DNA of 64,000 bases. Source: Nitrososphaerota archaeon (lineage in GTDB: Archaea; Thermoproteota; Nitrososphaeria_A; Caldarchaeales; Caldarchaeaceae). Of this stretch, positions 22,180-24,404 are shown piece by piece. The position numbers and the translations under genes are program-made. The stretch is from NCBI GenBank assembly GCA_041641305.1, contig JBEPYN010000001.1, positions 640,001 to 704,000 of the forward strand, in the 5' to 3' direction. Under the pieces are notes generated by a model. The model was not told the DNA's origin, ran no database searches, and worked only from the letters and a program-made list of their open reading frames with translations. Each line of letters begins with the position of its first letter. The stretch's first letter is position 1.

Positions 22180-22413
22180 ATGCCTTCTGCGTTTGTGTTG
22201 ATTAACACAGAGATTGGCGCCGAGGAGGAGGTTGTTAATGAGCTGAAGAAGATTTCCTACATCAAGGAGGCCTATGTCGTCTACGGTGTCTATGACATCG
22301 TGGCTAAGGTTGAGGCGGACACGATGGAGAAGCTTAAGGAAGTCGTTTCATGGAGCATCCGCCGACTTGAAAAGGTGCGGTCCACCCTGACGATGCTCGT
22401 CGTCGGCTCATAA
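22180..22413 (+). CDS. Stand-alone Lrp/AsnC ligand-binding (RAM) domain protein
   Basis: AFVLINTEIG, VYGVYDIVAKVEA, VRSTLT; GAGGAG SD before ATG; no HTH. Confidence 0.9.
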   Translation: MPSAFVLINTEIGAEEEVVNELKKISYIKEAYVVYGVYDIVAKVEADTMEKLKEVVSWSIRRLEKVRSTLTMLVVGS

Positions 22414-22418
22414 AAAAA

Positions 22419-23096
22419 TTAAGTGGACTTGTTTTTGCCGTTGAGGGTTTCTCTTCTGAAGAAGGGGCTGTCCAGCGAGACGTAGCCAACCTGTATGGTT
22501 GGCTCAGGGTTACCTGTTCTCTCCACAACCGATGTAATCAGGTTCAGGGCTTCGCCGAGGCTCATGTCGGGCCTGTACTCGTTCTCCAACATGTCGATGG
22601 CTTTGTCTGAGTTGACTCCAAGGGCGAAGGCGTCGCCGTTGAAGGCTGTTCCGCTTGGATCCACTTGGTAAAGCTGCACTCCGAGCTTGTCGACACCTGC
22701 TATGATGACCGCCACGCCTTGGGGCCTCACAGGGTAGAGGGTGTAGCCGTGGAAGTAGCCGCTCACCGAGTCCACCAAAGTCCCCACATCTACGGCGGCG
22801 TCGAAGAGCAGCCTATGCCGCTGCGCCTCTATACGCATGTGGTCCACTATTCGGTAAAGGTCGCTGATGTATCCCGAACCCGTTACGCCCACATGGTCGT
22901 CGACGACGAAGACTTTGTCGCTTGGCTTCATCAGTTTACGGGTTGGCTTAACCATGCTCGCGAGCACGGCGTAGCGTGGGAACCGTAGTCCGATGCTTAT
23001 CGCACCCCTCATCACAGCCTCGAGAGCCCGGTCGACGAGCGTCATCCGACCCTCGGGGCCATAGAACATCTGGAAACGCGAAGGATCCATCGCCAA
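22419..23096 (-). CDS. psmA: Proteasome alpha-subunit paralog (divergent)
   Basis: F.GPEGR..V..A.EAV.RG, KVFVVDDHVG..SG..SD, R.EAQ.HRL, YTLYPVRPQGV..IIAGVD, LYQVDPSG, ALG. TTG 23096 or ATG 23090 lies just after the beta stop with a GAGGTG SD. Confidence 0.88.
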   Translation of the reverse strand: MAMDPSRFQMFYGPEGRMTLVDRALEAVMRGAISIGLRFPRYAVLASMVKPTRKLMKPSDKVFVVDDHVGVTGSGYISDLYRIVDHMRIEAQRHRLLFDAAVDVGTLVDSVSGYFHGYTLYPVRPQGVAVIIAGVDKLGVQLYQVDPSGTAFNGDAFALGVNSDKAIDMLENEYRPDMSLGEALNLITSVVERTGNPEPTIQVGYVSLDSPFFRRETLNGKNKST

Positions 23097-23097
23097 T

Positions 23098-23661
23098 TTA
23101 TCCACCTCTCACAGGAATTGCTAAAACGTCTACGCCGTTTCCCGAGCCGGGGTCACGCTGCATAGCCGCTTCAACAGCCTTCACCGCAATAGCTCTTGCC
23201 TCCTCCAGCTTAAGGCCTGGTGAATAGAGGCTCTCTAAGACGCCGTAGGCGACTGGGGACCCGGAGCCTGATGAGACAAACTCTTCAGCCACCATGGAGC
23301 CGCTCATGTCGCTGCTGAACACATGCGGGCCCTCGTCGTCTACCCCAGCCACTATCAGCTCCGCGTAGTATGGTATGTAGCTGCGTAGGCCGCTGTAGAA
23401 GAGGTTGGATATCAGCTTGCTTGACTCGGCGACCGACAACGGGTAGCCGCGTCTCAGGGCGATTAGTTTGCGCTCGGCTCTCACTACGTTGACGAGATAC
23501 ACGGCGTCGGATAATAGGCCTGCGACCGCAATAGCCAGGCTGTCGTCGACTTTCATTATTTTCTGCGTGGTTTTCGAAGCGATGAAGAAGCCTTTGCTCG
23601 CTCTTCTGTCGGATGCAAGGACAACTCCGTCAACCGCTTTCAAACCAACTATTGTTGTCAC
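23098..23661 (-). CDS. psmB: Proteasome beta-subunit paralog without propeptide
   Basis: GTG-TTIVG with Thr1/Asp17/Lys33 in exact register, AG(47), SGSGS, RDPGSG. In-frame TAA 12 codons upstream with no earlier ATG/GTG/TTG. Confidence 0.92.
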   Translation of the reverse strand: MTTIVGLKAVDGVVLASDRRASKGFFIASKTTQKIMKVDDSLAIAVAGLLSDAVYLVNVVRAERKLIALRRGYPLSVAESSKLISNLFYSGLRSYIPYYAELIVAGVDDEGPHVFSSDMSGSMVAEEFVSSGSGSPVAYGVLESLYSPGLKLEEARAIAVKAVEAAMQRDPGSGNGVDVLAIPVRGG

Positions 23662-23727
23662 GTTTCCTCGGAAGATAATGTGTTTGAGAGATGTTTAGCG
23701 ACTATGTTGCCTCGCAGTTGGTCACGG

Positions 23728-24333
23728 CTACGCCGCTATGCTGAATATTCCTGTTGGCAGGGTTTTGAGGTTGGAGAAGTCGTCTATCAAGGCGAGTTCG
23801 TAGGCTTTGTGTAGTATGGCTAGGGCGGCGCGGACGGCGCGGCGCTCGTTTCGGTTGCTCATGATGGTTAGGCGTCCATTTTTTAGGCGGAGGGTTATCT
23901 GCATTTCTCCGTCCTGGGATATCCAGCGGAGAACCTGTGCATCGTTTTCGACGCTGTAGCCGAGCCACCTCATCTCATCGACCCATCTCCCATGCAGGGC
24001 TGTGACACCGGCTAAAACCAGCCCCATATCCTCAACCCTCGTGTCAACAATCACGTAACCGTCTACATGCCCGTGTTCGCCCACCAGCTTCCGCGCCTTA
24101 CGGCTCAGCCTGTATCCCCTATCCCCTCTATCCACAAGCCCATGTTTCTCAAGCCTCCGAAGGATGCGGGAAAGTTTCTCCTGATGCATGCCAAGAGCCC
24201 TACGCATTCCCGCGAAGCTGACCTCGCCATCGGAGGCCGTTGATAAAGCCTTCAAAACAGCCTCCTCATCCTCCCTGAAGTCAAACCCTCCTTCATGAGC
24301 CATATGAACCCTGTCTTTGTTCGAGGCATCCAT
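23728..24333 (-). CDS. Winged helix-turn-helix protein with C-terminal alpha/beta domain
   Basis: SFAGMRRALGMHQEKLSRILRRLEKHGLVDR..GYRLS. Confidence 0.8.
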   Translation of the reverse strand: MDASNKDRVHMAHEGGFDFREDEEAVLKALSTASDGEVSFAGMRRALGMHQEKLSRILRRLEKHGLVDRGDRGYRLSRKARKLVGEHGHVDGYVIVDTRVEDMGLVLAGVTALHGRWVDEMRWLGYSVENDAQVLRWISQDGEMQITLRLKNGRLTIMSNRNERRAVRAALAILHKAYELALIDDFSNLKTLPTGIFSIAA

Positions 24334-24404
24334 GTTTTAAGGGTGTTCTCTATACACGTGGCTGGCATGTTCTTAAATTTAGGCAGGCTCTAAAATTTGT
24401 TTGC

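Follow-up and report, generated by a model that had tools for sequence, protein, structure and literature searches.

What does a second pair of 20S-type proteasome genes, carried beside a candidate regulator gene, do in an archaeon that already has a complete canonical set? The archaeal 20S particle is the textbook minimal proteasome, with one alpha subunit, one or two beta subunits that cleave off their own propeptides, and a Tyr-Asp-Arg (YDR) gate that is opened by ATPases with hydrophobic-Tyr-X (HbYX) tails. To our knowledge, little has been described of how archaeal proteasome genes are controlled. The pair considered here lies in a stretch of 64,000 nucleotides (nt), the window, from the Caldarchaeaceae genome of a hot-spring archaeon that resembles Candidatus Caldiarchaeum. 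Here three minus-strand genes follow one another: a winged helix-turn-helix (wHTH) regulator gene (24333-23728, 201 amino acids [aa], the ortholog of the "hypothetical" CSUB_C1146), the gene for a catalytic beta subunit, designated beta3 (23661-23098, 187 aa, GTG start), and the gene for an alpha subunit, designated alpha2 (23096-22419, 225 aa from TTG). Both subunits are PF00227 proteins. The cassette is almost certainly real and functional, and its sequence and conservation indicate that it probably builds a separately switched second protein-degrading particle.

In the 66-nt gap between the regulator gene and beta3, 2 nt past the regulator stop codon and beginning 64 nt before the beta3 start, lies an operator-like palindrome of 27 base pairs (bp) (23725-23699, minus strand; GTGACC-N16-AGTCG), which is followed by the A/T-rich, TATA-like CTAAAC. 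The TTG of alpha2 (23096) is 1 nt past the beta3 TAA, with GAGGTGGA as a Shine-Dalgarno-like site ahead of it. Alternative alpha2 starts are found at ATG 23090 and GTG 23105; translation from TTG 23096 gives MAMDPSRF and a total of 225 aa, the length of the Candidatus Caldiarchaeum subterraneum ortholog E6N313, and alpha2 is 96% identical to the C. subterraneum protein. An initial annotation, made from the letters of the window, had described an adjacent beta-alpha pair, with the alpha start 1 nt after the beta stop, set apart from a psmB at 54.5 kb, and all of this holds. It had also asked for a canonical YDR-bearing psmA elsewhere in the genome. Indeed, five PF00227 genes are present in the 1.66-Mb genome: a YDR psmA, two psmB with propeptides of ~10 and ~16 residues (one of them in the window at ~54.5-55.2 kb), beta3 and alpha2. 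Alpha2 is thus not the sole psmA and, because the genome has a full canonical set of one YDR psmA and two psmB, the pair is additional. The canonical psmA adjoins SBDS-like and Rrp4-like genes (contig 1 of the genome, ~177-179 kb, G000:C1; L003:28-2145), an arrangement typical of the classical archaeal exosome/proteasome superoperon; genes of this kind are missing around the extra pair.

Beta3 begins GTG ACA ACA ATA GTT GGT, so that the start codon is followed directly by TTIVG. An in-frame TAA stands 12 codons upstream, and the 11 intervening codons include no ATG, GTG or TTG. When the open reading frame (ORF) is aligned to the mature A. fulgidus beta subunit (1J2Q_H), its residue 2 falls on Thr1, and Asp17, Arg19, Lys33, Gly47, the SGSGS loop (128-130), Asp166 and Ser169 are all in register; it also aligns from Thr1 to the mature T. 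acidophilum beta. The catalytic set (Thr1, Asp/Glu17, Lys33, Gly47, Ser129, Asp166 and Ser169) is invariant in alignment A3. These alignments confirm the annotated view of a beta subunit that lacks a propeptide, with its Thr1, Asp17, Lys33, Gly47, SGS and RD..SG elements in place. Moreover, all beta3 orthologs start M-T-T-[IV]-[VI]-[GA], often with a stop 2-12 codons upstream (in several, only two or three), and on this sequence evidence it is the propeptide-less start that defines the module. The resemblance to HslV and Anbu drawn in the initial annotation applies to the manner in which Thr1 is exposed and does not extend to the sequence, which is that of a 20S beta: PF00227 scores 167.3 bits over residues 2-180, the best PDB match is the A. 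fulgidus 20S beta (E 2e-39), identity to the host's canonical betas is 38-42%, and TIGR03634 reaches 212.5 bits, under its equivalog cut-off of 224. The HslV profiles TIGR03692/NF003964 give 19.8 and 20.8 bits, far under their cut-offs of 157.75 and 137, and cover residues 1-66 only.

Alpha2 is more divergent at its N terminus, which reads R-F-Q-M-F-Y-G-P-E-G-R. Tyr8 and Asp9 are replaced by Pro and Ser, and Tyr26 by Arg; of the signature only Pro17 and Arg10 remain. The Lys66 equivalent of the activator (HbYX) pocket is kept (K59 of the 223-aa form); it is invariant in alignment A2 and common with the canonical alpha. The annotated retention of Pro17 and Lys66, and loss of Tyr8, Asp9 and Tyr26, is confirmed by the alignment. 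A search with PF10584, the alpha N-terminal signature YDR...SP.GR..Q.EYA, found no match in alpha2 and scored 49.8 bits in the host's canonical alpha. The remainder of the protein is that of a 20S alpha: it has no catalytic Thr1, scores 125 bits with PF00227, aligns to archaeal alphas over residues 8-213, and has its best PDB match in an archaeal 20S (E 3e-32). It is 31% identical to the host's canonical alpha and falls below the cut-offs of TIGR03633 (150.6 bits against 287.35) and NF003075 (162 against 219). The alpha2 proteins of aigarchaea and ammonia-oxidizing archaea (AOA) have R-[FY]-x-x-[FY]-Y-G-P-[EQ]-G-R in common, with Arg or Ser at position 26, and homologs with the altered N terminus, at ~50% identity, are abundant among Nitrososphaera-type metagenome proteins. 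Among the distant alpha2 matches is a 495-aa protein (P0194) made of two nearly identical canonical alphas in tandem, probably an assembly or gene-call artifact.

How widespread is the cassette? Long contigs of a Nitrososphaera and of a second aigarchaeon have the genes in the same wHTH-beta-alpha order. Among 75 Caldarchaeales genomes, alpha2 was found only in Caldarchaeum and one sister genus, the other families having one alpha and two betas. In an even sample of 400 Thermoproteota genomes, beta3 is present in 42, distributed as 11 of the 16 genomes of the window's own family (the window's genome counted; Caldarchaeum and the sister genus), 4 of the 56 in the family that includes Nitrosotalea, 2 Nitrososphaeraceae, and 25 of the 32 Methanomethylicaceae. 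The adjacent pair is present in Caldarchaeum, in the soil ammonia oxidizers Nitrososphaera, Nitrosocosmicus and Nitrosotalea, and in Methanosuratincola. An alpha2 query recovered 36 of the 42 beta3 carriers, and alpha2 is adjacent wherever the contig allows. One of the six missed carriers (G002) has a contig-end alpha2 fragment only. We inspected the regions of the other five together with that of a Methanomethylicaceae genome, G284; in five of these six regions wHTH, beta and alpha stand in order, and in the sixth the contig ends after beta. In G284 (L089, C7:8400-11400), alpha2 appears only as a 165-residue C-terminal frame, which may reflect a broken gene, a frameshift or a fault in the assembly. 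Five other carriers, checked in full, each have the three canonical genes plus the pair. The wHTH-beta-alpha linkage is thus conserved across lineages and, since the same arrangement recurs in dozens of genomes, it is not due to chance.

Joint alpha and beta trees, built with FastTree (146 rows) and IQ-TREE (78 rows), place all alpha2 proteins in one clade and all beta3 proteins in another, with supports of 98 and 99 in FastTree and 99 and 99 (Shimodaira-Hasegawa-like approximate likelihood ratio test, SH-aLRT) in IQ-TREE. Both clades have the same internal split, Methanomethylicia against aigarchaea plus AOA. Canonical subunits from these genomes fall in other parts of the tree, where they cluster by lineage, and the alpha2 clade lies outside the canonical Thermoproteota alphas. 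Its nearest tree neighbors (P0205, P0218, P0224, P0226 and P0316) were considered as relatives and set aside; they are ordinary alphas with canonical GYDR or GYDK N termini. The comparison with archaeal PsmA and PsmB that the annotation had called for thus gives separate clades with matching topology. Because the two subunits form clades of their own with congruent topology, and the canonical subunits fall elsewhere, the pair is, by phylogeny, an old paralogous set that was inherited together and not a recent duplication.

These data bear on whether the pair is simply a redundant or decaying copy of the housekeeping genes that has no role of its own. Its patchy distribution would fit such a history, as searches did not find it in most Caldarchaeales families, nor in 52 of the 56 sampled genomes of the Nitrosotalea family. 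However, the ORFs are intact, no catalytic residue is missing, motifs particular to the clades are kept in three classes, and the pair has a dedicated regulator and promoter element. Moreover, the ratio of nonsynonymous to synonymous substitution rates (dN/dS) between Caldarchaeum species is 0.015-0.05 for beta3 and 0.05-0.12 for alpha2, so that the range for the pair is 0.015-0.12; it is ~0.15 for the regulator gene. All three genes are under purifying selection. Strain-specific decay is likewise ruled out by the M-T-T start, which is universal, and by the gate loss, which occurs in all aigarchaeal and thaumarchaeal orthologs; the Methanomethylicia, which keep YDR or YGR, are taken up below. 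A decaying duplicate is strongly disfavored, and we regard it as very improbable.

A more serious alternative, and the main rival to a separate particle, is that alpha2 and beta3 are induced and then built into canonical PsmA/PsmB rings, so that mixed 20S subtypes arise whose gating or specificity is changed. By sequence, both proteins clearly belong to the 20S type, with archaeal 20S subunits as their best PDB matches (E 2e-39 and 3e-32), both retain the ring-forming PF00227 core, and mixing of paralogs has precedents in archaea, Rhodococcus and eukaryotes. Against this, alpha and beta are always inherited, lost and coupled together and have congruent trees, which exceeds what the swap of one subunit would need; their identity to the host's canonical subunits is only 31% for alpha and 38-42% for beta; and, in hosts in which the canonical subunits track the species tree, their clades have remained separate. 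We therefore consider mixed rings somewhat unlikely, and lean modestly towards an alpha2/beta3 particle that would be separate from the canonical 20S.

The third gene of the cassette encodes a protein with an N-terminal MarR-like wHTH domain and a C-terminal beta-alpha-beta4-alpha domain with an invariant GRW...LRWLG. Its Pfam scores are 26.8 bits for PF12802 (MarR_2; cut-off 27) and 22.2 for PF01047 (MarR; cut-off 24.6), its HVO_A0261_N match is also just below the cut-off, and its orthologs have precomputed matches to PF01047, PF12802 and PF25213. In the AF2 model (mean predicted local distance difference test, pLDDT, 79), the wHTH superimposes on the MarR-family structures 3NRV, 3OOP, 5H3R and 3S2W with Z of 11.8-12.3 and root-mean-square deviations of 1.6-2.4 Å over 71-81 residues (VIA-align). 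The C-terminal domain modelled alone (pLDDT 83) has no clear solved homolog: the best Z is 7.9, and Foldseek gives nothing at E <= 1e-3. As candidates for its family, Roco COR-B, KA1 and TBP-like arrangements were considered and rejected as noise-band matches (Z <= 7.9). With a profile of this domain, each carrier genome yields a single copy, invariably next to the pair, and close relatives without the pair yield none. Across the 400 sampled genomes, the profile picks out all 42 beta3 carriers and 15 Bathyarchaeia. In Nitrosotalea and Nitrosocosmicus the regulator gene is downstream of alpha2 and convergent to it, which means that the linkage survives rearrangement.

The palindrome in front of beta3 is conserved in position. 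A bipartite element, (G/T)TGACY-N15-17-NGTCR, is found 55-67 nt before the beta3 start in every lineage examined: Caldarchaeum species, the sister genus g2, another aigarchaeon, Nitrososphaera, Nitrosotalea, Nitrosocosmicus, two further AOA, and Methanomethylicia. Its half-sites are conserved and its spacer is not. In most lineages a TATA-like A/T-rich box (TTAAT, TAAAT, TAATAT or CTAAAC) directly follows it. The element precedes beta3 also in the two genera in which the regulator gene is not upstream but elsewhere or convergent, and in three lineages it is found upstream of the regulator gene as well. Of 100 loci, 38 match the pattern; bar one canonical-alpha locus, all of these (many overlapping) are cassette or Bathyarchaeia regulator loci. 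This positional conservation suggests a dedicated local regulator, and the annotated idea that the wHTH protein makes expression conditional is strengthened by an operator-like palindrome conserved in the beta3 promoter. The half-sites are about two helical turns apart, and the right one is where a TFB-recognition element (BRE) would be; such a placement fits either occlusion or recruitment of TFB/TBP, so that the factor may be a repressor or an activator.

Of the 15 Bathyarchaeia with the regulator domain, the five that were checked have canonical proteasome genes only. At four Bathyarchaeia loci, which represent three genera, a gene for an HtrA-type protease with Trypsin_2 and PDZ domains directly follows the regulator gene on the same strand (L096:2970-4440 in genome G332, L098:3580-5224 in G142, L099:2521-4171 in G342 and L100:3270-4921 in G257). 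Between the two genes, 40-73 nt before the HtrA start, the same palindrome occurs, as GTGACT-N16/17-AGTCA. In Bathyarchaeum, genes for a Csp-like protein and an M3 oligopeptidase are found near the regulator gene. Judged by these sequences, the regulator-HtrA unit looks like the mark of a protease-linked regulator family of its own, and the pairing with HtrA suggests a role in protein quality control or stress.

Could the wHTH protein instead be a physical partner of the protease (an assembly chaperone, a cap, an adaptor or a substrate), or at once its regulator and a target of its degradation, in a feedback loop of the Rpn4 kind? The private C-terminal domain lacks a clear homolog of known structure and occurs strictly together with protease genes, and in most lineages the gene is co-directional with and near beta3. 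Yet the same family and palindrome stand beside an unrelated protease, HtrA, in Bathyarchaeia, for which shared regulation is a better fit than shared binding; in Nitrosotalea and Nitrosocosmicus the gene is convergent to the pair and transcribed apart from it; and the wHTH is a standard DNA-reading domain. Complex predictions of alpha2/beta3 with the wHTH protein scored 0.00 in both runs, which counts neither for nor against binding. On balance, a partner role is improbable. Given the conserved palindrome, the single-copy, co-distributed C-terminal domain and the HtrA pairing in Bathyarchaeia, the wHTH protein is most likely a dedicated regulator of protease genes, and we hold with fair confidence that it acts as the transcription factor of this module.

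Taken together, the data fit the following model. Beta3 and alpha2 would make up a bicistronic operon in which translation is coupled, encoding a second N-terminal nucleophile (Ntn) protease of the 20S type. Removal of the initiator Met alone would expose Thr1 of beta3, with no autocatalytic propeptide step or assembly-coupled checkpoint. In aigarchaeal and thaumarchaeal alpha2, the open-gate cluster of Tyr8, Asp9 and Tyr26 appears to have been replaced by R-[FY]-x-x-[FY]-Y-G-P with the Lys66 pocket kept, so the pore of the aigarchaeal and AOA particle would open or close without that cluster. The wHTH factor, presumably a dimer with its private C-terminal domain, would bind the 27-bp palindrome abutting the BRE/TATA of the beta3-alpha2 promoter, and the second protease would be made only on a signal. 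The likeliest product would be an alpha2(7)-beta3(7)-beta3(7)-alpha2(7) particle that works alongside the housekeeping 20S, degrading proteins under stress or for quality control. For the whole chain, from a regulated operon to a separate second 20S-type particle that matures by Met removal, we put the chances slightly above even.

Several observations weigh against this model. The RNA record is thin: small portions of the stretch turned up in four of eight listed metatranscriptome runs, and four runs gave three identical contigs of 152-298 nt (22304-22601 and 23845-24036) at a depth of ~3, for which DNA carry-over is possible; they are no proof of transcription, strand or induction. A 3% sample of two raw-read metatranscriptome runs contained zero reads from the stretch. 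Exclusive assembly of alpha2 with beta3 is a prediction, and the subunits of the two Rhodococcus operons have been reported to mix. Across the host genome (G000), the operator pattern is not enriched, with 6 matches against 8 for the reversed control, so that no wider regulon can be claimed and the case for an operator rests on positional conservation and not on rarity. No unfoldase tracks the module: Caldarchaeales that lack the cassette also have 2-3 Cdc48. Finally, the alpha2 proteins of Methanomethylicia retain YDR or YGR and Tyr26 and match PF10584 (28.7-39.6 bits). Because of these orthologs, the altered gate cannot serve to define the module, and gate degeneration is, by sequence comparison, secondary within the clade. 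The alternative 20S-like system proposed in the initial annotation is sustained in part, as an extra, conserved, non-decayed and regulator-linked module; gate loss is not universal to it, a flanking Lrp-type gene described below is not part of it, and its likeness to HslV and Anbu is limited.

As to possible activators, PAN is absent from the genome (best match 331 bits, cut-off 500), and two Cdc48 homologs were found (G000:C1:566850-568973 and G000:C2:219285-221408). Their C termini end in ...MAYIG and ...LMMIG, neither of which is the textbook hydrophobic-Tyr-X tail. Methanosuratincola has a PAN (569 bits), and in the aigarchaeal and AOA carriers no match exceeds the cut-off, which is a correlation only.

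A bolder version of the model would make the particle an emergency proteasome: self-contained, independent of activators, active on assembly for want of a propeptide checkpoint, with a re-engineered gate that dispenses with the YDR/Tyr26 cluster, and silenced by a regulator of a new family whose private C-terminal domain senses proteotoxic stress, the same sensor-regulator being re-used for HtrA in Bathyarchaeia. In that case the regulator is possibly a substrate of the protease it controls. We think it unlikely that all of these parts hold; if they did, the emergency role and the re-use for HtrA would amount to an undescribed type of archaeal protein-quality-control regulon.

Two features flank the cassette. 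A plus-strand gene for a stand-alone Lrp/AsnC ligand-binding (RAM-only Lrp) protein (22180-22413) is convergent to alpha2. The gene is present, as annotated, and in Caldarchaeum species and the sister genus a RAM gene stays 0-1.3 kb from the cassette, which is not so in ammonia oxidizers or Methanomethylicia; this flank is conserved only in the aigarchaeal branch and is no part of the module. On the other side, 71 nt (24334-24404) form a divergent promoter region between the regulator gene and a gene for a DUF6512 membrane protein. An inverted repeat, TTTTAGG-N5-CCTAAAA (in the sister species and Caldarchaeum), precedes the regulator gene here and overlaps A/T-rich TATA-like boxes. It may represent two back-to-back TATA boxes of the promoter shared with DUF6512 or a second operator, and we do not claim it as an operator.

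If the set is separate and regulated, archaea too would diversify their proteasomes into housekeeping and conditional forms. The module would then be a natural test case for the purpose of the propeptide and of the YDR cluster, and its regulator would represent an archaeal family of protease-linked transcription factors with a defined operator. The carriers include cultured ammonia oxidizers (Nitrososphaera, Nitrosocosmicus and Nitrosotalea), and C. subterraneum proteins have already been used in vitro for the archaeal ubiquitin system; with such cultures and such a precedent, these hypotheses are directly testable.

How does the cassette compare with known systems? With the canonical archaeal 20S (T. 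acidophilum, 1PMA; A. fulgidus, 1J2Q/6HE5) it shares the PF00227 fold, the catalytic residues of beta, and Pro17 and the Lys66 pocket of alpha. It differs in that its genes are adjacent and coupled, beta before alpha, that beta3 has no propeptide, that alpha2 of the aigarchaeal and AOA branch lacks PF10584, Tyr8, Asp9 and Tyr26, that both subunits fall below the NCBIfam equivalog cut-offs, and that the cassette is additional to the canonical genes and has a regulator and operator-like site of its own. Second sets of 20S subunits occur elsewhere. Rhodococcus erythropolis has two prcB-prcA operons, beta before alpha as here, and Haloferax volcanii makes 20S subtypes with alpha1 or alpha2 (PsmA/PsmC), only alpha being duplicated. 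In contrast to beta3, the betas of these systems carry long propeptides that are needed for assembly, and we know of no dedicated adjacent transcription factor with a conserved operator for either set. Changes in the ratio of Pyrococcus beta1 to beta2, and the immunoproteasome, are further precedents for altered 20S composition.

The catalytic Thr directly after the initiator Met is shared with HslV, Anbu and BPH. These are homo-oligomers, whereas beta3 is by sequence a 20S beta with a dedicated alpha partner. Anbu has no propeptide and relies on methionine aminopeptidase (Fuchs et al. 2017, PMC5666114; 2021, PMC8665760). Fuchs, Alva and Lupas catalogued 22 distant proteasome-like families and found propeptides in "most" betas (2021, PMC8665760); the alpha2/beta3 pair is not among these 22 new families. 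Nor did we find a description of the pair in the literature searched, including work on the C. subterraneum genome, the ubiquitin system and ammonia-oxidizer genomics, a coverage that is incomplete and does not prove the pair unpublished. New in this analysis are the operator-like palindrome, the co-distribution of the C-terminal domain and the link to HtrA in Bathyarchaeia.

The closest functional parallels are the inducible proteasome systems: the immunoproteasome, yeast Rpn4, and the actinobacterial PafBC wHTH regulators, whose genes adjoin proteasome genes. In these, as proposed here, extra proteasome capacity is placed under a dedicated factor, which in prokaryotes is encoded beside the protease genes. 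The cassette differs in its archaeal host, its new operator sequence and its regulator, which belongs to an unrelated family, has a private C-terminal domain and, in Bathyarchaeia, appears to serve an HtrA-type protease as well.

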